Source: Elsinoe ampelina (Eukaryota). Taken from it: a stretch of 64,000 bases of DNA. The DNA lies in the NCBI GenBank assembly GCA_010093995.1, contig ML992503.1:409662-473661 (forward strand). Direction: 5' to 3'. The position numbers and the translations under genes were made by a program. The notes beneath the pieces were generated by a model, which had not been told where the DNA came from, did no database searches, and saw only the letters and a program-made list of their open reading frames with translations. This document shows, piece by piece, positions 34,164-48,454 of the stretch; position 1 is the first letter of the stretch; each line of letters begins with the position of its first letter.

Positions 34164-34876
34164 CCTCGCCAATCGTTCGCATCTGCACAGCTGATCCGAC
34201 AAGCCATCAAAAGATGCGCCATTTGACCGTAAGCATAGCATACAAGATCACACCGATACAGCATATCACCTTTTCACACCACTATTGACATCTGCTGCTT
34301 TATTCTATCTATGATCAGGGTATCCGAGCGCCTGCTGCCACCGATGTATGCTTCTACAAGGACTAACAGCAGGAGCAAGGTCGGGACCGATTCCAGAGAA
34401 CAGTGAAGGCTGTGGACGAATGGCCTGATGCTCTCTCTTTTTCAGGGGTCACATAGTTCCCATAGATGTCCGAAATGAGAGATTGCATACCAAATCATGC
34501 ATCCAATGTGCTCAATAAGTCACCTCAACTGGATAATAAGGAGTATGCTGACAAAAGACGGCCCGTGCACAGATTTCTGTCGACTTCAACTCGATGCGAA
34601 CTTTGCTTCTTCAGTCTATTTGTGCCGTCAAAAGTATGCCACCAATGCGACCCGCTCAATGTTGCGCAAGAATGCGAAGCACAACAGCCCAAACTCAACC
34701 TTGTAGGGATACGCTTCAATGGTGGCAATTTCCCACCCGCTACCGCAGACGTTCTGCGGTAAAGAGTTGAGGAAACCTATAGCTGGACGACCTGGACTAT
34801 GAGTGGTAGGTACTTGTCTACCGGATGCCCCCTTCTTCCCACTCAGCAACGCGACCGAGGGATCATCACGATTACC

Positions 34877-37800
34877 ATGAGAGTATCTTTCCTCTTTTCT
34901 GTGTTTGTCATTGAGACTGCCCTTTTCTCGGAAGGGCACTCGATAGTGACCGATATCAATCCTGGGCCTCCCAATCTTCGTCGTCCTGTCCCATTTGTGG
35001 ACGCTCCTCGGAGATTTATGATCAACGGATACAGTATATGGTACGACCTAAACAAGTTTCCGCCCTATATCTATAACAACCTAGATCAAGTGATCAAACA
35101 CACACCAAGGAGGCCGTGGGTTACGTCCCCAAGCAGTCTGTTCGATGCCTTCCCGGAGCTCAGAAACTACGCGCCATGGACTCTACACGAGATCATTGCA
35201 AAGCTGTGGCATTACGACACGAAGAACGCGCCGCGCTTTTGGCCGCACTTGGACGAAGTGTTCGTCGACAACATTGCGAGATGGGCAGAGAGCAGGGATC
35301 CAGGCCGAGAACTTTACAGTTTGGAGAAACTGCGCAAATCTCGCTACAAAACTATTGCGAGTATGTGGCGTGAATTTTGGGCCTCGGACTGGATGCCAGA
35401 CGAGTTCCGGGAGCCATTAGAATTGGAGGAACAACTGATCTCTGTTGATCGTGGCCACCTCCTCGATACTGCTAGGCCGAATCCAAAAGTCTGGCTCGGT
35501 AAACGCCGCCAAAGGGTCTGGGTAGATCCATACAGATTCAGGGAACCCGAAGGACAGACGCCGGAAGGAGCACGTCTCCCACGACTAGAGAGACCTCGGG
35601 CTGAGGGCTTGCACAGGGACGGCACTATCGGGTCTCTTAGAAAATGGCTGCCCAGAGTGCCATCCGCGCCTCAGTCATCGGCCCGCAAATGGTTCGAGAG
35701 GTTCAAGGCCTGGTTGCGCAAAATCTTCACTTCGAAGCTGTCTCAAGAAGAGCGAGCAGCGGCTCTGAAAAAGATGCCGCAGCCAGCTGCTGGTGACGAA
35801 TCTCCTATCTCACCCCCGGAGGAGCCTCGTCCGCCAATTCAACCACCAGAGCCTCCCGTCGAACCACCAGAGCCTCCCGTCGAACCACCAGAGCCTCCCG
35901 TCGAACCACCAGGGCCTCCCGTCGAACCACCAGAGCCACCTTCGCCAGAACCCCCCGCGCCACCGCCAGAACCGCCCGTCCAACCACCTGAGCCGCCCGT
36001 CGAGCCACCTGGGCCCCCTATCGAACCACCTGAGCCTCCCGTCGAACCTCCCCCACCTCCTGTCGAACCTCCTCAGCCTCCTGTCGAACCTCCTCGGCCT
36101 CCTGTCGAACCGCCTAGGCCCGCTCCACCGAAACCTCCTCCGCCAAAACCGCAGCCTAAGCCGCCTGCAAAGCCCCAACCGAAACCCCGTCCAAAGCCAC
36201 AGCCAAAACCGAAACCACTGCCGGAGCCAGCCAACACACGTAGGATACCCGAAGTCAAAGTTCCAAGAGAGTATCGCTTCAACAAATACAATCTGTGGTA
36301 TGACTTGGACAAGATGTCCCCAAAATTCTGGCAACATCTAAATCAAGCAGCTGGCAGGCATACTAGAGAATTTCTGGACTTGTTCGATGCATTCCCCGAA
36401 CTTCGGAATTACGCTCCTTGGACACTTCATGATTTGTTCTCCCAGATCTCTAAGGCGAACTCGAAGACGTTCCCTCGCTACTGGCCCGAATTGACCGAGG
36501 AAGTAGTCGCAGTTTGGAAACTCCGTGCTGAGAGAATGGACCCACATAAGCTTCTGACGACCACCAAAAAAGGGGAAGAAGGGTATTTCTTGGAGAGAGC
36601 GGATGTGAAGCGGACCCTCTTGCATTATCGTCGAGCCGAGGGACTCAGGTCGAGGCTCAAAGTCATGACCTCGGAAGGCCCAGGACATGAGTTGAAATCC
36701 ACAGTAGAACGCATGGTGGATGACGAGATGAAGATGGCACACAAACTGGATCCGGGGGGACTTCTCGACGAGAGGTTTCCCAACCAAGACATATTTGACA
36801 AGCTTGGCAAAGAGAGGATGATCAGGACATTCGAATGGTACCCGGACGAACTACCTCCAGCGGGCATGCCACCACCGGACATACAGAAAATGCCACCAGG
36901 CCTAGAAGATGTCCTGAGCCCAGTCGAACCCAATGCGAAGCCCCCAATGGCGACAAGGGTACCCGTCACCGAAAGACCTCCGGGTCAGCGTCCAGAACCT
37001 ACTGCAAAGCCTGGAGAGCCTGGGGACAAGCCTGGAGAGCCTGGGGACAAGCCTGGAGAGCCTGGCGACAAGCCTGGAGAACCTCACGAACCCGACGGCA
37101 AGCCAGGTGAGCCTCGTGGACCTGGCGAGAAGCCTCCGAAGCCTGTAGAAGGCGGTGACCTCATGCCCAATAGTGAAGGCAAGGTCGTTCGTTTCGCAGA
37201 CGACCCTGCCGCGAATATCCCGCCACAGGTCAGAGAGCGTCTCGCTTTGAAGTTTGAGAGGATCAGGAACGGCGTTCCAGCGACCCGTGTCTTCCCTGAG
37301 ATGGCTGGTCTGCCTCCCCGTATTCAGGCGAGAGCATTGTGGGCGCTCGGCCTGCCCGAGAACTTGTTTGGTAGGGTGGCTCGAGGTGTCGCCGTGGCAG
37401 TCATCAAGGTCGTGTCTAACGCCGTGATCAGGGCTGTGGCCGCCATTGTCACCGAGGTTCTCAGTATCCTGATGAGCATTTTCGATATTGTCGGCCTCAT
37501 TGTCGACGCAGTGATGCTTCTCCTGTCATTCTTCGATATGGGAAAGTATCACATGGGTGAATGCTTTGCTGGGAATCAGACTTGCTTGGTCCCACCTGGC
37601 CACAAGCACCCGGGATATCACGAGTGCGACGATGTCCACAAGTGTCATTTCACCGGCGATGTCTGCGGGATACGCCACTCGGCATTGGCACCCGCCGTGT
37701 GCAATTGGCATCGCCGTGAGCTGTATAAGATAGTCACCCACCACAGTTCCTGGAGTGAATTTTCGGATGACAGGAAAGACAAAGGCTCTGATGCTGATCC

Positions 37801-38980
37801 ATCAAGGTGGAAAAACCATGAATGCCGCGGTATGCTGCTCAAGAGAGACGAACAATGCGATCTGCAATACCATGATTGGTATTTTCAGTGCATGGACGAT
37901 TCGAAGACGGTCCAACCCCGGGACTTGCAAGACGACCCCAAGCACAAAGATCACAAAGACGGACACAACGACGGGCATGATAGTCGGTACGAAAAAGCCT
38001 GTGCGCGGACGGCTGAGGCTTCAAAGCTACGCTGCAAAGATGAAGTTGAACAATGGGCGCCAATCTGCCAGAAGACCAGATTGATTCTGCTACGCGAAGA
38101 AGCAAACGCTCCAGACCCCAAGAACACCAAGGTCCCCAAACCGACTCACACTTCCAACACGGCAGCCTGGGCACAATGGCCCAATATCACCATTCTCAGC
38201 GCCAACATGACTGCCACATACACGAAGCCTTACTTGACGCTTCTCAAGAATGGAAGTCTCGCGACATCGGTCAACATCACCACCGCCACCATGACCTCAG
38301 CGGTGACCATTACATTTACTACCAACGGCGCCATCGTTCCGACTGATCCACCAGAGCCAGACGACAAGAACACTCACGTCGTGCTTCCTGGTGTACCTGA
38401 TCGCCCTCCCCATGGTTACTGCAAGCCCTCCGTCAAGGAGCTCAAGTACAAATACTGCTCCGCAATCGTTCGGAAGCTAGAGCGACAGGCCTGCGATAAA
38501 GACTGCGACGCATGGTCAGAGCGGTGCCAGATCCGTAAAGAGCGGGGCTACACCCTGGCCGGCGACGAGTTGAAGCAATGTGACATCGTACACGAGAATG
38601 AGAAGGCCCGGTGCGGCCCGAAGAAGAAGGACAAGCATGCGGCCAAGCACGAGAAGAAACAGTGTCTGGATGTGGCTGAAGAACAGCACGCTGTCTGCAA
38701 GGCGAAGATCCATGACTTGTTCTCGGGCAGGTTGGAGACGGACCCGAAACCAGACAGTAAAGAGGAGCAGATGCAGTTACCGAAGGTGCCCGAGGAGAAG
38801 ACTGACAAGGAGGCGTGTAAAGCGCAGAGGGATGAGATGAGAGCGCATTATTGCCCAGGGTTGAAGGGGAAAGACAAGATTGAAGGGAAGTTGAGGGTGG
38901 AAGGAGGGTACTGGTTTCGTGCCTGTAATAAGTTGTGCGATGCTTGGTATGAGGGGTGCAGAGCGGCTGGGTACCAGTGA
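34877..38980 (+). CDS. Putative secreted modular protein with a duplicated domain, Pro-rich linkers, a hydrophobic segment and a Cx10C-rich C-terminus
   Basis: Second ATG (34877) gives signal-peptide-like MRVSFLFSVFVIETALFSEGHS; 4.1-kb open frame; internal duplication; paralogous to 32031-34163. Confidence 0.85.
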   Translation: MRVSFLFSVFVIETALFSEGHSIVTDINPGPPNLRRPVPFVDAPRRFMINGYSIWYDLNKFPPYIYNNLDQVIKHTPRRPWVTSPSSLFDAFPELRNYAPWTLHEIIAKLWHYDTKNAPRFWPHLDEVFVDNIARWAESRDPGRELYSLEKLRKSRYKTIASMWREFWASDWMPDEFREPLELEEQLISVDRGHLLDTARPNPKVWLGKRRQRVWVDPYRFREPEGQTPEGARLPRLERPRAEGLHRDGTIGSLRKWLPRVPSAPQSSARKWFERFKAWLRKIFTSKLSQEERAAALKKMPQPAAGDESPISPPEEPRPPIQPPEPPVEPPEPPVEPPEPPVEPPGPPVEPPEPPSPEPPAPPPEPPVQPPEPPVEPPGPPIEPPEPPVEPPPPPVEPPQPPVEPPRPPVEPPRPAPPKPPPPKPQPKPPAKPQPKPRPKPQPKPKPLPEPANTRRIPEVKVPREYRFNKYNLWYDLDKMSPKFWQHLNQAAGRHTREFLDLFDAFPELRNYAPWTLHDLFSQISKANSKTFPRYWPELTEEVVAVWKLRAERMDPHKLLTTTKKGEEGYFLERADVKRTLLHYRRAEGLRSRLKVMTSEGPGHELKSTVERMVDDEMKMAHKLDPGGLLDERFPNQDIFDKLGKERMIRTFEWYPDELPPAGMPPPDIQKMPPGLEDVLSPVEPNAKPPMATRVPVTERPPGQRPEPTAKPGEPGDKPGEPGDKPGEPGDKPGEPHEPDGKPGEPRGPGEKPPKPVEGGDLMPNSEGKVVRFADDPAANIPPQVRERLALKFERIRNGVPATRVFPEMAGLPPRIQARALWALGLPENLFGRVARGVAVAVIKVVSNAVIRAVAAIVTEVLSILMSIFDIVGLIVDAVMLLLSFFDMGKYHMGECFAGNQTCLVPPGHKHPGYHECDDVHKCHFTGDVCGIRHSALAPAVCNWHRRELYKIVTHHSSWSEFSDDRKDKGSDADPSRWKNHECRGMLLKRDEQCDLQYHDWYFQCMDDSKTVQPRDLQDDPKHKDHKDGHNDGHDSRYEKACARTAEASKLRCKDEVEQWAPICQKTRLILLREEANAPDPKNTKVPKPTHTSNTAAWAQWPNITILSANMTATYTKPYLTLLKNGSLATSVNITTATMTSAVTITFTTNGAIVPTDPPEPDDKNTHVVLPGVPDRPPHGYCKPSVKELKYKYCSAIVRKLERQACDKDCDAWSERCQIRKERGYTLAGDELKQCDIVHENEKARCGPKKKDKHAAKHEKKQCLDVAEEQHAVCKAKIHDLFSGRLETDPKPDSKEEQMQLPKVPEEKTDKEACKAQRDEMRAHYCPGLKGKDKIEGKLRVEGGYWFRACNKLCDAWYEGCRAAGYQ
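35843..36215 (+). repeat. Coding 21-bp tandem repeats (PPEPPVE)n followed by PKPQ-type repeats
   Basis: CCACCAGAGCCTCCCGTCGAA units seen directly. Confidence 0.9.
37008..37140 (+). repeat. Coding 21-bp tandem repeats (KPGEPGD)n
   Basis: AAGCCTGGAGAGCCTGGGGAC units seen directly. Confidence 0.9.
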
Positions 38981-39358
38981 TGTTGTAGTAGAGGGACGGG
39001 GGTGAGGAAGGTCGCGCTGTACAGCATCGATCGAGATCAAAGAGTCTTGTAAAAGCTGTTACGTCGATGAGAACACGTCATGTATATGGTCAAAGATCGT
39101 CAAGTGTCTAGCAATGGCCAAGGATGATCTCTGACATGATCAGGAGGTGAAGCTGGGGATGCTTTAGAATTGCCTGTTTGGGAATAGCCTCGGATGACGT
39201 CTTGCTCCTCTATCTCCACTTGAGCAATCACCTATCCATTTATCTTGACGTCCCAAAACAAGTCGGAGTCTGAAGACATCTTACACAGCGGACCGCTCTC
39301 CTTACTGATGTTTATCTGCCTCCATTGTGGAGTCCCCACTCACTGACCCACCCCCAGC

Positions 39359-40503
39359 ATGGCGTCCAGATATATGGTGCCACCACAGCCCCCGCCTGAC
39401 CTTAAGATTCCAACTTCAGATGCCACAGTGGAAGTATCATGTATTGACAGGTATGTCACTCACGTGACCTATTCTGCGCCCCCACTCATACAACCAGCAC
39501 AACATGCCTCAAACTCCCCATGTCCCCCTTCCTCCAACCCAACATCAAAGGCAAAGAATTCCTCACCGGCCCCGCTTTCAGCTTCCTCATCCGCCACTCC
39601 TCCGGCAAACAAGTCCTCTTCGACCTCGGCACCCGCAAGGACTGGCAAAACCTCCCCCCCGTCATCGTCGACCGCATCACCTCCGGCGGCTGGACCGTCA
39701 CCGTCGACAAAAACATCTCCACCATCCTCACCGAACACTCCATCCCCGTCTCAGCCGGCGCCATCGACGCCGTCATCTGGTCCCACCACCACTGGGACCA
39801 CGTAGGGGACATGTCGACCTTCCCAAAATCCACCTCCCTCGTCGTCGGCCCCGGTTTCCAGGCCGAACACCTCCCCGGCTACCCCGACCGGCCCGACGCC
39901 CCCGTCATGGCCGAGGACTTCCGCGGGCGAACCGTCGTCGAGATCGACCCGCGGACCGACGGCAAGGGCCTCAAGCTAGGCCGCTTCTGGGCGCACGACT
40001 ACTTCGGCGACGGCAGCTTCTACCTCCTCGACACCCCGGGGCATTCGGTGGGGCACATCTGCGGACTCGCACGGACGACAGGAGGGGGGGAGGCGTCGAC
40101 GTTTGTCTTCATGGGAGGGGACGCGTGTCACCACGGAGGCGAGTTCAGGCCGTCACGGTACCTGCCTTTGCCGGAGGGGTTGGAGCCGAGTCCGGTGCCG
40201 ACGTTGAGGGTGTGTCCCGGGAGTTTGCTCACGGCGTTTCATAGGAGTGGGAAGGCGACGGAGCCGTTTTATGAGGTCACGCCCATGTTTGCGCATGATG
40301 TGGGGGAGTGTAATTGGACGATTGATGGGGTGGAGGAGTTTGATGCGCAGGGGAATGTTTTGGTGCTTATTGCGCATGATGATAGTGTCGAGGGGGAGGT
40401 GGAGATGTTTCCGAGGGCGATGAATGATTGGTGCGAGAAGGGGGTGAAGGAGAGGGTGAAGTGGAGGTTTTTGAGGGACTTTGCTGGTGCTGTGGAAACG
40501 TGA
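39359..40503 (+). CDS. Metallo-beta-lactamase fold hydrolase (AHL-lactonase/lactamase-like); exons 39359-39450 and 39498-40503
   Basis: LFDLG, SHHHWDHVGD (HxHxDH), DTPGHSVGH, GGDACH, AHD; 47-nt intron 39451-39497 keeps frame. Confidence 0.9.
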
Positions 40504-40861
40504 TACGTGGGATTTGATGCGTAATGAATGGTATGACTGCTGGCGAACGGGAGAGATATTCTTGGTTGCGAGCAAATGATCGACGTAGAGAGAATATCAC
40601 GGTTTACTCATCTTCATTGAGTCATGAGCAAACGGGACAAACATTTACCTTACATTTCCACTATAGTCCTACCCTATCCTTGCTAAGCATTCTTAGTGCT
40701 AGAACCCCTGTGAGACCATGATCGACGCCAGAGCGAGCAATTCGTCAACCCCGCCGCAGATTTTAAAAATCTTCATATAGAACCAAAAAAACCACTGGCA
40801 TTCAACCTACCCATTTTCTTCAGAGAATGACACCGTTTGAGGTAGTTTCGGTAGCTCAGTG

Positions 40862-40911
40862 GCATGTATCGCCACAGGATTCTGGCCGAATCTGCTCTAA
40901 TTCCCCTTCAG
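40862..40911 (+). other. 50-nt spliceosomal-type GC-AG intron in the tRNA D-loop (between G18 and G19)
   Basis: GCATGT donor, CTAAT branch at 40897-40901, TCCCCTTCAG acceptor. Confidence 0.82.
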
Positions 40912-40930
40912 GTAGAGCGTGGGATTGCAG

Positions 40931-40944
40931 CTCCAGCCGCAATT
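40931..40944 (+). other. Canonical 14-nt tRNA intron at position 37/38
   Basis: CTCCAGCCGCAATT lies one base 3' of the anticodon; its GCAAT pairs with ATTGC of the anticodon arm. Confidence 0.88.
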
Positions 40945-40958
40945 ATCCTAAGGTCTCG

Positions 40959-41007
40959 GTAAGGAAAACGTTGCGTGTCATTCCCATCACTTCTGACTCT
41001 TGAAAAG
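40959..41007 (+). other. 49-nt spliceosomal-type GT-AG intron in the tRNA T-stem (between 51 and 52)
   Basis: GTAAGG donor, CTGAC branch at 40993-40997, AAG acceptor; removal creates the perfect TCGTG/CACGA stem. Confidence 0.85.
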
Positions 41008-41028
41008 TGTTCGACCCACGATCGGAAC

Positions 41029-41043
41029 TTTTTTGCATTTTTT
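41029..41043 (+). terminator. RNA polymerase III terminator (T6-GCA-T6)
   Basis: Two T6 runs begin at the tRNA 3' end. Confidence 0.8.
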
Positions 41044-41945
41044 GGGCATGCGTAGCAACTCTCCGACTCCTGGGCTCCAGTCCATCAATTTAGCGTACTC
41101 ACTGGATTCACTTTTTGCAATGTAGGAGAACCGTAAAACGCTAGTCAAGAGGGCTTTCGCAGACTGGATGATTGGTAAAATGCTTCACTTGTCGTGTGGA
41201 TCTTTGCTTGTCGCCGCACAACACACTGCATTTCCACGAGACAAGGGACATAATCCATCACGGACGTCGTTGGTGTGTAGCAGGTCCAGTAGCGTCTACT
41301 ACACATCCACACCATGCTCCACGCTGCCGTTGTAGAGAATGCTATCCTGTCGACCTCGGCGCCGCGGCGAACATGTCCCTCACATGGAACGCTTCTCAAA
41401 TTGGTCAGGCCTGCAACATGCAGCCACTGGGAGCGGGACGCGGCTCCTTTCACCCTCACACCGCGCAGAGCCGCATGTGGCAATCGATCTTAGTTTGGCA
41501 GATGGTCGATCAGGGATGCAACGAGCAAAGGGCAAATCTGGTTAAGATATCCCATGTAATGGTCTGTCCCCATCTTGCATGCCTTCTCCGGAGGAAGTGT
41601 TCATCACGATTTGCTCAAGATGATGGAGACGGAAATGAGGACAGGAGTCTTCGGGAACAGATTGTGAGGTAATTGCTGCGAGATGAGGTCAACGAAACGG
41701 TACTGGTTGTGGATCTCAGATCTTCAGGTTGCAGATGAGGACAGGAGTATGATGCTCTGGCCGTTGACGAGCATGTAGACCACGTGCTGTATGCGATGTG
41801 ACATCACGGCATCAGATCAACGGAAAGTCAAGAATGGAGCATCATTGACTTGATGCTCAGGTTCTTTCTATCTTGTCAAACGAGTGTACGCCAGCAGTAG
41901 CCAGCCAGTCGCCGCCTATCGAGCCTCTGCACTTCTGCATAGCCC

Positions 41946-43147
41946 TCAAGCAGCAACACCCACCACCCCAGCCTTGACCCCATCAATCCTCCTAAACCCA
42001 CCCTCCTCCTTGACAACCCTCTGCAACTCGGCCATCCTCTTTTGGTCACCCAACGGATCCGCCGAATCCACCTCCAACTCCCACCCCTGCAAAAACTCAT
42101 TCGTGTAATTCGGCTCGTACCCCTCGGGCAAAACCCCCAACCTCTTCCCATACCTGGTCACCTTCTCCCAATCCCTCTTGACATTCTTCAGATCCCTACT
42201 GAAATACGCAAAACTCCTCTCGAAGATCTTCCTGTTCACCGCGCCGGCCATCTCGGGCTTCACGTCGATGTAGATTTCATACATAGCCTTTGGATCAGCC
42301 AAGACGTCCGCGGTCGCCCGCTTGACGGCCTTCATGAATTTGGCTACCTTCTCCGGGTTAGCGGAGATGAATGCGTCGTTGGCGATGTACAGGATGCTGC
42401 AGAAACAGCAACACCCCAACTCGGCCAGCTCGTCGATGCGCAGCATCTGCACGTCGTCACGCGGACGACCTTGAGAGGCGAGCCACTCCTCGAGCTCGAC
42501 CATCTGGACGTTCTCGAGGCCGATGCCGGCGTCGACGGTGCCCTCGATGATGGCTTTGGTGACGTTCATGCCGCAGCGTACGGCGGTGTAGTCGGTAGGC
42601 TTCATGCCGTAGTGGGCGGTGAGTTCGTCGATTTGGATCTTGCCGAACTCGCCGACATAGCCGATGCGTTTGCCGCGGAGCGTGGTGAAGTCCGGGGTGA
42701 TGCCCGAGGACTTGAGGTAGACGACGCCGGTGAAGGGCTCGTCGAGGAGGGAGCCGATAGAGGTGACAGGGAAGCCGCGGGCTTTGGCCTGGGAGGGAGG
42801 TGAGTGGTGGGCAGGGATGGGGAGGAGGGGACTCGTACGGCGAGGGTGTGGATCATGGCTTTGAAGCCCATATCGACTTTACCGGAGCCGATGATTTCGG
42901 TGACATCTATTGTGAGTCAGTCGGAGACCGTGTTGGATTGAGAGTGGTAGTACCACTTGGGTCGTTGGGCTCGAGAAGAGCGACCTTGATGCCTTCATCG
43001 GCAAAGTAGCCAAGCTTCTGAGCGAGGTACACGGGGGCATGGTATGGCGTAGTGTGCCTGTCAATCGTCAATGGGGTCTATACTTTGTGTCGAGAGCACA
43101 TGTCGACCGCACCAGTTCATCAAAAAGGTGGTCTTGTCAGTCGACAT
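41946..43147 (-). CDS. NMT1: HMP-P synthase NMT1/THI5 (thiamine pyrimidine biosynthesis); introns 43112-43058, 42953-42907, 42838-42789
   Basis: [25 protein letters not shown]...[60 protein letters not shown]. Confidence 0.95.
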
Positions 43148-43200
43148 GTTGCTGCTGGACCAATTAGGCTGCTATTGCAGGGGGGATAAGGGTCAGATGA

Positions 43201-43320
43201 AGCATGTCCTTTCGCTGGTATTATCCAGATCAAGTTTTGTACGGTATAATCTCAGAACCGATTGAGCATCACCTGTTGGTCTCCCAACAGATGATGCAGC
43301 AATTGGACACCCGTCATGCT
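43201..43320 (-). promoter_or_regulatory. TPP riboswitch aptamer in the 5' intron of NMT1
   Basis: Minus strand AGCATGACGGGTG...CTGAGATTATACCGT...AACTTGATCTGGATAATACCAGCGAAAGGACATGCT; P1 AGCATG/CATGCT; lies upstream of a thiamine gene. Confidence 0.95.
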
Positions 43321-45060
43321 ATTCTGTGATTGTACGTTACCTTGACCCAGATGGACTTCCATGGCGAAAGGCACGCTGTCTCCGAGAGACATACGGCTTG
43401 TTGTCTGGCGTTTGAATGACGATTTGTTATGTTCAATGCGTGTTTCAAGATAGCTTGGGAGGTAAAAATCCTTGCTTTGTAGAGAGAGAAAAGGAGAATT
43501 GCTTCGAGTCGAGGCATGTGAGAGAAGAGGGGTACAGTAGAGGTGGACTCGCACTGACCTCACCGCGGGGGCTGTTGTGCTCTCCACTCACTGATGCAGT
43601 TTTTTCTTGAGCAGCAATGCATGCCTCAACCTTGTCAAGATATCGCGTCTTGGTCTGCAGTTGAAGCTCAGAACGTGCTCCGAGGTCTGGAGCTCCCACC
43701 GGATTGACAGCTGGTCGGGTGTCCAGCAATGTGCTAGTCTCTCAACGGCAAAGGCGCATCTTGGGTGCGGGGATTGACAGGCACACGCTGTCCCTCTGGA
43801 GGATCCCTCTGGAGGATCTGGGTGATCATGGGGTCAAGCAAGATCAGGCACGGTCAAGAGAGTTTTGCTGCCCTCTGAATTCTGCCGCGGCAAAAGTTTC
43901 GACATTTCCGGAGACCGAAAAATGTACACCATCGATCGAGATGATCTGTACAAAACGATGGAGACGCATGGTCGTTGCTGGATGATGCCGCATGCACCAG
44001 ATTGTGCGGATAAGCTACACTATTGATATCAGCCCTTCAGCTGGTCATCATGGGGGCGAAAAGGCAAGACTGCTGAGAAGGCGAGCCTACCGGAAGAGGA
44101 AAGTCGTCAATCACCGGAAGCCCTCAGTGGCTCACGCCCGCTCAAGCCTGTCCGAGGCCTTCTCGGCGATATCCCCCCGTAAGGTTCGGAGCACACCGCT
44201 GATTCGCTCGGTCAAGAGTTGGTGCGGTCTGGGCGCAAAATGCAATGCACTGCGTCGATCACACAAGAGTAAGACTGCGGCTAAGATCAACGGACTCTGC
44301 GGCACCTCGGACAGGATCTTGCTGATGACCTTTCAGCGAGGGAGGTATCACGGTGACAGACGTGCAACGTTCGAGAGATCAGGAGGTGGAAGCGTTCAAT
44401 TGACTGGTTCCGAATATCGTCATCTGAGGTAGAAAGAGCAGACAGATCGGACAAGTTCCACGATGGGATGGCAACCATTCATGCACGGAACATCTGGAAG
44501 AACATGGACCAAGCTCACTACTCTGAGACTACTGCATGTCTTGCCGTCGCATCACTTCCTCGCCCGCGACAAAAATCCTCCGTTTTACCCTCCGTCTTCA
44601 CCACACCCGAGAACAGGCTGATGGTTGCCACGCTCCCTCTCCGCCCACTCGGTCCGTCGCGGGCTTGCGTGCGCATGATCGACTGCCAGTCCTACTCGCG
44701 TGGGTAGGTGGATGCCATAAACCCTATCGCTGACTCGCCATCCTCACGTCCCTGTTGGTTGGACCAAACCTTGTCGTGTCTTTCCTCCGCAAATCCCTCT
44801 ATCAAAGCACGTACCTCATCTGGTCATCCTTGATTGGAAAGAGGCGCCATGTAGGTCACCCATCTTCGGTTAATATTATCTGACCTCGCCTTGTCCTTGA
44901 CTACTGCCGACTCACGCTACCTTACCTTCCTGCATGCCAGCGTGTCAGGTGTGATTTAATGTGACTCGCCTCCGGACCTCTCTTCAGCTGGGATTTGCCA
45001 GTCTGACTTTCAGCTTCAATATCCTCACAACCAGTCTCGCCATTGCAGGTCCATCACACA

Positions 45061-47697: not shown

Positions 47698-48454
47698 TCA
47701 CATGACCACACAACACGAGTTCTGCTTCTTGGCCTGCAAAAAGTCAGCCTACACTCTCCCCCTCTCCCCTCCCAACACTCCAATCCACTCACCTGCGTAT
47801 AAAACATCTTACTCTGCGCACTCAACCCATCACTCTTGGCCACCAAACTATCAATCTTCTCCCCCCTCTCCAACACACTCTCAATCGTCTTGTGCAACAC
47901 AATCTTCGTCTCATCCAACTCCTTCTGGATCTTCATGATGCTATCCGCCTGCGCCGGATCCTGATACTTCTGTATATACTCCTTGAGCTGCGGGAAGGCC
48001 AGTTCACCGCCAGTCACGTTCCCCTGGTACGCGCTCCTCGGGTACTTGGACAGGAACTCGTCCAGGATCTTGCTGAGCAGTTGGTGTGCGACGAGAGCGG
48101 GGTACTCGTGGTCCGAGATTATGATGCCCGCGACGCCTTCGGTGCGGGCGTATGCGTGGAAGGTGTAGGATTGTTCTTCGACGTCTTGGCGTTGGCCGGG
48201 CCGGGTGCGTTCGGCGACGGTTTTGGAGAAGAGGGACATGAATTCGCCGATGCTTTGGGGTGGTTAGTGGGGAGGAGACGGAGGGGGGACGAGGAAGGGA
48301 CCTAGTGCGCGTGAAGCGCGAGTAGCTGCTGAGGTCGCGTTCGGCGCATAGTTCCACGGCGGGCTTGTCTTCGTTCTTGAGGATCTGGGGCGGTCAGTGA
48401 GGGGGGAGGCTGGGGTGGAGGGGAGGGAGGTACGCCGATGTAGAGGATCTTCAT
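47698..48454 (-). CDS. YKT6: Longin R-SNARE Ykt6; introns 48433-48385, 48301-48253, 47792-47734
   Basis: MKILYIG|ILKN...DLSSYSRFTR; QDPAQADSIMKIQKELDETKIVLHKTIESVLERGEKID; CCVVM prenylation end. Confidence 0.95.

Follow-up and report, generated by a model that had tools for sequence, protein, structure and literature searches.

Can the maturation of a single tRNA depend on both the spliceosome and the tRNA splicing endonuclease? The two kinds of intron concerned are treated as separate, unrelated classes in excerpts of a 2025 paper and a 2023 review (PMC12530127, PMC10275265), and a locus in Elsinoe ampelina raises the question of whether one gene can carry both. An earlier note had described this locus as a tRNA-Cys gene interrupted by two introns of spliceosomal type and by a canonical tRNA intron. 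It lies in a 64-kb window (the whole stretch of DNA that was analysed) from E. ampelina, of the Dothideomycetes, order Myriangiales; a metallo-beta-lactamase-fold protein encoded in the window is 100% identical to an NCBI protein of E. ampelina, followed by matches in other Elsinoe species at 72-87% identity.

The gene is on the + strand and was divided into four exons. Exon 1 (40845..40861, 17 nt) supplies tRNA nucleotides 1-17, comprising the 5' strand of the acceptor stem, the 5' strand of the D-stem and the start of the D-loop, and exon 2 (40912..40930, 19 nt) supplies the remaining D-arm, the 5' strand of the anticodon stem, the anticodon GCA and G37. Exon 3 (40945..40958, 14 nt) contains A38, the 3' strand of the anticodon stem, the variable loop and the first 3 nt of the T-stem, while exon 4 (41008..41029, 22 nt) contains the remaining T-arm, the 3' strand of the acceptor stem and the discriminator U73. 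The four exons were joined by coordinates with a script, and ARAGORN identified the resulting 72 nt as tRNA-Cys(gca), the cloverleaf being complete and position 73 being T. All 72 positions were flawless, in agreement with the claim of an intact tRNA-Cys(GCA) with U73 and no decayed positions, and the joined exons have the cloverleaf, the GCA anticodon and the U73 discriminator expected of a functional tRNA-Cys. The three inserts occupy 40862-40911, 40931-40944 and 40959-41007. Their borders are fixed to within one base because the tRNA itself sets them, and for each outer insert only a single register is left: GC..AG ends are obtained only with 40862-40911, and GT..AG ends only with 40959-41007.

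The gene was invisible to standard searches of the raw sequence. ARAGORN returned no tRNA gene from the raw 64-kb window, Rfam gave no match in it at the gathering score, and a permissive Rfam search of 40700-41200 gave no tRNA match. Comparison of these results with the ARAGORN call on the joined exons bears out the prediction that tRNA finders would miss the gene. A heuristic search of the whole window for a T-arm with an acceptor complement revealed no split tRNA besides the tRNA-Cys locus. The one match that the permissive Rfam search did list, a weak snoR64a-like one just upstream of the gene on the - strand (40753-40828; 15.4 bits, E 6.5), is most likely due to chance.

The middle insert (40931..40944, 14 nt) is located at position 37/38, the site of classical tRNA introns, and its GCAA pairs with TTGC of the anticodon loop. 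Tested for a bulge-helix-bulge (BHB) fold, it formed four of four pairs in the central helix and five of five in the outer helix, and by this predicted fold it is a member of the endonuclease-type (BHB/SEN) intron family. Among the metagenome matches listed (described below), a 37/38 intron of 9-61 nt was present in 79 of 115 parsed tRNA-Cys genes, so that an intron such as the 14-nt one is usual in the group; among the same listed matches, 74 of these 79 introns contain the anticodon complement. One metagenome tRNA-Cys gene, at locus L051, has an unusually long 37/38 insert of 61 nt, which does not start with GT and is presumably also of the endonuclease type.

The two outer inserts carry the signals of spliceosomal introns. 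Intron 1 (40862..40911, 50 nt) interrupts the D-loop between its two conserved Gs and has a GCATGT donor, a CTCTAAT branch site and a CAG acceptor; intron 3 (40959..41007, 49 nt) interrupts the T-stem at 51/52 and has a GTAAGG donor, a TTCTGAC branch site and an AAG acceptor. Each of the two opens with a 5' splice site that fits G[TC]NNG, a G standing at both +1 and +5, and closes with AG, and each holds just one CTRAY, whose branch A lies 11 nt before the 3' end. An ORF-joining heuristic delimited five mRNA introns in the window, and these are 48-52 nt long and have GTRAGY or GTATGT donors, an ACTGAC-type branch site and a branch A 9-11 nt from the 3' end. An intron in the neighbouring gene (39451-39497, 47 nt) is proven by RNA, and the outer inserts fall within the host size class of 47-52 nt seen for mRNA introns of the window. 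The resemblance that had been claimed between the outer introns and these mRNA introns was upheld against the five ORF-joined examples for length, donor, branch site and spacing. An AAG acceptor had also been attributed to intron 2 of a YKT6 gene, and a minus-strand reading of about 47710-48453, made from the reading frame and not from RNA, fits this. The YKT6-like gene itself ends in CCVVM and has three short introns, of which the second apparently uses AAG after a CACTAAC branch site.

As a control for chance resemblance, window segments of the observed lengths were screened for a start of G[TC]NNG, an end of AG and a CTRAY 9-14 nt from the end. Only 33 of 767,340 segments (4.3e-5) qualified, with the real introns counted in, and the chance per insert is at most 1.3e-4.

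RNA evidence was taken from six public E. ampelina runs, four of which (X3-X6) were compared as contigs with 39300-41700. The 47-nt intron of the neighbouring gene was skipped in X3, X4 and X6. X3 is cDNA, because this intron is skipped and the intergenic stretch 40515-40757 has no cover in it; X4 and X6 cover the upstream gene only and not the tRNA locus, and X5 covers nothing in 39300-41700. A single X3 contig (record 2; 997 nt, depth 39.7) has its 5' end at 40826, 19 nt before tRNA position 1. Eight loose letters at the start of this contig are presumably the tail of an Illumina adapter, and 40826 is therefore a real RNA fragment end. The locus is transcribed from about 40826, with a 5' leader at 40826..40844 defined by the start of the contig. 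Within the contig exactly 49 nt are skipped, at a joint (40957>41007) that has 132 letters on its shorter side and that, with the cut moved by +1, falls on GT..AG at 40959-41007. Intron 3 thus leaves the RNA exactly at its GT..AG borders. Intron 1 and the 14-nt intron are kept in the same contig, the sole RNA contig over intron 1, and intron 3 had been removed while the endonuclease-type intron was still present.

Spliced junctions in RNA had been proposed as a check on the outer introns. The intron 3 joint was found in X3, while the intron 1 joint was not in the X3 contig; contigs drop rare forms. For the proposal of two spliceosomal introns beside a canonical one, the signals therefore stand for both outer inserts and excision stands for intron 3, whereas intron 1 is retained in the only contig that covers it. 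Short RNAs are lost from contigs, and the exons, at 14-22 nt, are shorter than the 31-letter index words; neither the mature tRNA, a lariat nor the fully spliced form was among the RNA seen in contigs, which cannot show short RNAs.

Downstream, the X3 contig reads through exon 4, two T6 runs and a T5 run to 41700 and beyond. The stretch 41044..41700 belongs to the same contig and has no joint, and the length of the record implies an end near 41863. The contig extends about 830 nt past the T runs, its strand and single-molecule status not being readable from a contig, and strictly the spliced RNA need reach only a few bases beyond the first T6 run. Two downstream ORFs, 41172-41672 (+) and 41145-41489 (-), matched no Pfam family. 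A candidate small protein, starting with ATG at 40827 and running for 59 codons to 41055 (+) through retained intron 1 and spliced intron 3, was judged to be due to chance because about 12% of 44-codon stretches are open and the start is 1 nt from the RNA end. A gene caller fed with RNA-seq data could annotate this frame as a small protein.

Which polymerase makes the RNA is about evenly balanced between Pol III and a Pol II-type transcript. Pol III promoters contain an A box and a B box, the consensus sequences of which were used as a yardstick. An A-box-like TAGCTCAGTGG is complete at the DNA level, being formed by exon 1 and the first G of intron 1, and a B-box-like GTTCGACCC lies in exon 4, the distance between the two boxes being stretched to about 157 bp. 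Two T6 runs read from the sequence (41029..41034 and 41038..41043, + strand) resemble Pol III terminators, and the longest T run in introns 1 and 3 is 2, with no T4 run in either. The intact A- and B-box-like sequences and T6 runs, together with introns that are free of T4 runs, make Pol III possible, and fission-yeast U6 provides a precedent. A Pol II-type transcript is also possible, because the contig continues for about 830 nt past the T runs, where the ORFs have no Pfam family. Such a transcript would resemble that of tRNA-Sec in Trypanosoma brucei, which Aeby et al. reportedly described in 2010 as made by Pol II; there too the tRNA would be cut from a Pol II transcript, but no intron is involved in tRNA-Sec, unlike tRNA-Cys of E. 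ampelina. A putative TATA-like element, CATATAG (40776..40782, + strand), precedes the 5' end of the RNA by about 45-50 nt, and similar TATA-like stretches were found upstream of metagenome tRNA-Cys genes with or without extra introns, among the matches listed.

To look for further cases, as the earlier note had suggested, metagenomes were scanned with the 19-mer of exon 2 as the query, giving at least 122 matches at at least 119 loci; an earlier search pattern (the tail of exon 1, a gap of 40-70 nt and exon 2) had given no matches in metagenomes. Each match was checked for a contiguous 5' part and for T-stem and acceptor pairing. The 122 matches listed comprised 111 ordinary tRNA-Cys genes, five with an extra insert, four cut by the ends of their loci and two chance matches outside tRNA, so that the 19-mer identified 116 complete tRNA-Cys genes among them. 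Loci with an extra intron account for five of 95 distinct tRNA-Cys loci among the matches listed. Three of the inserts are in the D-loop at position 15/16 (L056, 55 nt; L084, 57 nt; L100, 65 nt), one is in the variable loop at 46/47 (L027, 54 nt) and one is in the acceptor stem at 3/4 (L106, 54 nt). All five start with GT, have G at +5, end in AG and contain one CTRAY only, located 10-13 nt before the end; their donors are GTACGG, GTAAGA, GTAAGG, GTATGT and GTGAGT. When the five loci were joined in silico, each was called tRNA-Cys(GCA) by ARAGORN, while in raw form four were missed and L027 was mis-called as tRNA-Ser. The search for more cases was thus answered by five further tRNA-Cys genes with GT..AG inserts among the metagenome matches listed. 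A different kind of locus among the matches, L016, has eight tRNA genes in 819 nt (1-819), the Cys gene from the scan being accompanied by Ser, His, Ser, Leu, Gly, Ser and Arg genes found by ARAGORN; this dense cluster is unlike the single fungal genes.

Comparison of these loci with one another bears on whether the genes are under selection. Between L056 and L100 the exons are identical at 72 of 72 positions, and the introns agree at 32 of 55 positions with gaps, being alike over the first ~22 nt, while the flanks agree at 45 of 137 and 58 of 132 positions, which is the random level. L095 is the orthologous locus of L027, with identical exons and with flanks agreeing at 30 of 40, 87 of 147 and 80 of 112 positions, and two introns of L027, a classical one of 11 nt and a GT-AG one of 54 nt, are precisely absent from it. 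Such a pattern would result from recombination with a fully spliced tRNA copy or from conversion by a paralogue that has no introns. The D-loop intron of the window lies 2 nt from the D-loop introns of L056, L084 and L100 and has no sequence in common with them. Because of this offset and the absence of common sequence, it is not their orthologue and was probably gained separately.

Taking the E. ampelina and metagenome data together, we consider it rather probable that the tRNA-Cys(GCA) gene in the window is live and that its precursor contains three introns belonging to two unrelated kinds. Against this reading count the retention of intron 1 in the one RNA contig that covers it, its GC donor in place of GT, the stretched distance between the A and B boxes, and an RNA that extends well beyond two T6 runs, as is uncommon for tRNA genes. 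The donor and the long RNA would speak for a redundant tRNA-Cys copy that has been retired, or exapted as the 5' end of a non-coding RNA made by Pol II, with intron 3 spliced as the first intron of that RNA, intron 1 mostly retained, no working tRNA produced and tRNA-Cys supplied by other intact genes. We regard this as unlikely, but it is the most serious of the alternatives. In the one form of RNA that was seen, intron 1 and both ends are retained and the sequence extends for the ~830 nt noted above, and the lack of Pfam families in the downstream ORFs fits a non-coding RNA. A dead copy should decay, however, and the intact exons therefore argue against retirement: the cloverleaf made by all 72 exon positions is without flaw and has the identity features of tRNA-Cys, and the fold for the endonuclease is preserved in the 14-nt intron. 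The five further genes with such introns, among the matches listed, also keep perfect exons. Compensatory stem changes distinguish L056 and L100 from L084, as read by eye from the joined sequences, and the exons of L056 and L100 are identical despite their scrambled flanks.

It would be far less probable that the spliceosomal look of the outer inserts is deceptive and that the tRNA splicing endonuclease cuts them as non-canonical tRNA introns, in the manner of Cyanidioschyzon, nucleomorphs and archaea. Non-canonical D- and T-arm introns do occur in some eukaryotes, and a nucleomorph tRNA-Cys with three introns appears in excerpts of a 2014 review (PMC4090602). In the same BHB test in which the 14-nt intron scored full marks, however, introns 1 and 3 reached at most two of four central-helix pairs at all three registers tried, and the five metagenome inserts never reached four of four at the five registers tried. 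Cutting by an endonuclease would not require the donor, branch and AG signals present in all seven inserts, and the insert sizes of 49-65 nt match host mRNA introns. Least credible of all is a chance resemblance or an assembly or strain artefact, such as a 49-bp genomic deletion in the strain used for RNA, for although the RNA label of X3 is a guess in the run table and the joint is present in one contig only, X3 behaves as cDNA in the neighbouring intron and intergenic DNA, every word sampled from the unspliced stretch is present in runs X1 and X2, the joint coincides with GT..AG and rebuilds a stem of the tRNA, and the same architecture recurs in five unrelated metagenome contigs among the matches listed.

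If the gene is live, as we favour, maturation of its tRNA-Cys would probably need two unrelated splicing machineries, an inference that is strengthened by the five independent parallel genes from metagenomes. The spliceosome would first take out intron 3; its removal of intron 1, the weaker of the two with GC-AG ends, would be slower, and the D- and T-arms would form only after both outer introns had left. RNase P and tRNase Z would then trim the ends and, after export, SEN and Trl1 would remove the 14-nt intron. In such a scheme a long RNA with intron 1 kept would be the expected slow intermediate, while any fully spliced molecule would be processed into tRNA and so disappear from long-RNA data.

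The outer introns probably arose by reverse splicing into a tRNA or by intron gain at the DNA level, and such gain probably happened repeatedly across this group of fungi. Introner-like elements, which van der Burgt et al. reportedly described in 2012 as multi-copy mobile introns of Dothideomycetes, are a possible source; when introns 1 and 3 were searched with blastn against the 64-kb window and the metagenome loci listed (at least 119), no match exceeded 11 nt, the level of chance. A wider proposal, to which we would give an even chance, is that spliceosomal introns have repeatedly colonised tRNA genes, at five or more positions in Elsinoe and in the fungi of L027, L056, L084, L100 and L106, and that these genes would still be a working source of tRNA-Cys, its supply depending on the spliceosome as well as on SEN/Trl1 and its precursor possibly being of Pol II type. 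Annotation would then miss about 5% of the sampled tRNA-Cys loci among the matches listed.

No description of spliceosomal introns in tRNA genes was found in a full-text search of literature that is for the most part freely accessible; within that scope the search agrees with the statement in the earlier note that no case in tRNA is known. Spliceosomal introns occur in U6, U2, U5 and U1 snRNA genes and in rRNA genes, and tRNA is absent from the list in an excerpt of the review that assembles them (PMC5855946). On the present reading, the E. ampelina gene would extend the range of spliceosomal introns in non-coding RNA genes to tRNA, and would do so beside a classical tRNA intron.

The closest precedent is provided by the mRNA-type introns in U6 genes of Schizosaccharomyces pombe and other fungi (Tani & Ohshima, 1989, 1991, cited in an excerpt of PMC5855946). 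Fungal U6, like tRNA-Cys, is a small, structured and abundant non-coding RNA with Pol III promoter elements, its intron is a short GT-AG intron with a branch site, and the spliceosome must act before the RNA folds and works. U6, however, is found within the spliceosome's active site, and this explains why an intron landed there, and reverse splicing is put forward as a possible origin of the introns in snRNA genes (PMC5855946, in excerpt). A tRNA is not near that active site, unlike U6, and introns in tRNA would therefore bear on how new introns are gained. The tRNA-Cys gene also differs from U6 in having two such introns, together with an endonuclease-type intron, in one gene.

Spliceosomal introns in ascomycete rDNA (Bhattacharya et al., 2000, cited in an excerpt of PMC5855946) offer a second parallel. 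As with tRNA-Cys, introns of spliceosomal type lie in a gene for which Pol II is not the normal polymerase, the hosts are filamentous ascomycetes, and presence and absence are scattered; the host RNA there is Pol I rRNA, in contrast, and excision from the mature form of the RNA rests on other evidence. Among tRNA genes, those of Cyanidioschyzon merolae, of cryptophyte and chlorarachniophyte nucleomorphs and of archaea include tRNA-Cys and resemble the present gene in having up to three introns, some of them in the D- or T-arm, and in being missed by finders. In the excerpted text of the 2014 review, the non-canonical D- and T-arm introns of nucleomorphs and Cyanidioschyzon are assigned to BHB or unknown routes, and the spliceosome is mentioned nowhere in that text (PMC4090602). 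The introns of those systems, as they appear in the same excerpts, are 3-24 nt long or bear a BHB, and their removal is ascribed to the tRNA endonuclease or to a route not known, whereas both outer inserts here have spliceosomal signals and did not pass the test for a BHB.

If a tRNA has to be processed by the spliceosome, the partition of intron classes with separate substrates would no longer hold, and tRNA would be added to the small set of non-coding RNA genes into which spliceosomal introns have moved. Such genes would also provide a natural test of fungal spliceosomes acting on Pol III transcripts, or of tRNAs derived from Pol II transcripts. For practical purposes, standard tRNA finders would under-count genes in some fungi, which would affect studies of codon usage and of tRNA repertoires.

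The window contains other features of interest. A TPP riboswitch aptamer match (43190-43324, - strand) scored 51.3 bits against an Rfam gathering score of 54.3 and was missed by the default scan; it lies upstream of an NMT1/THI5-like gene (41946-42878, - strand), an ordinary thiamine-regulated arrangement. On the + strand, 34763-38980 is a 1405-codon open frame with long proline-rich repeats of the PEPPVEPP type, KPGEPGD repeats and cysteine-rich ends.
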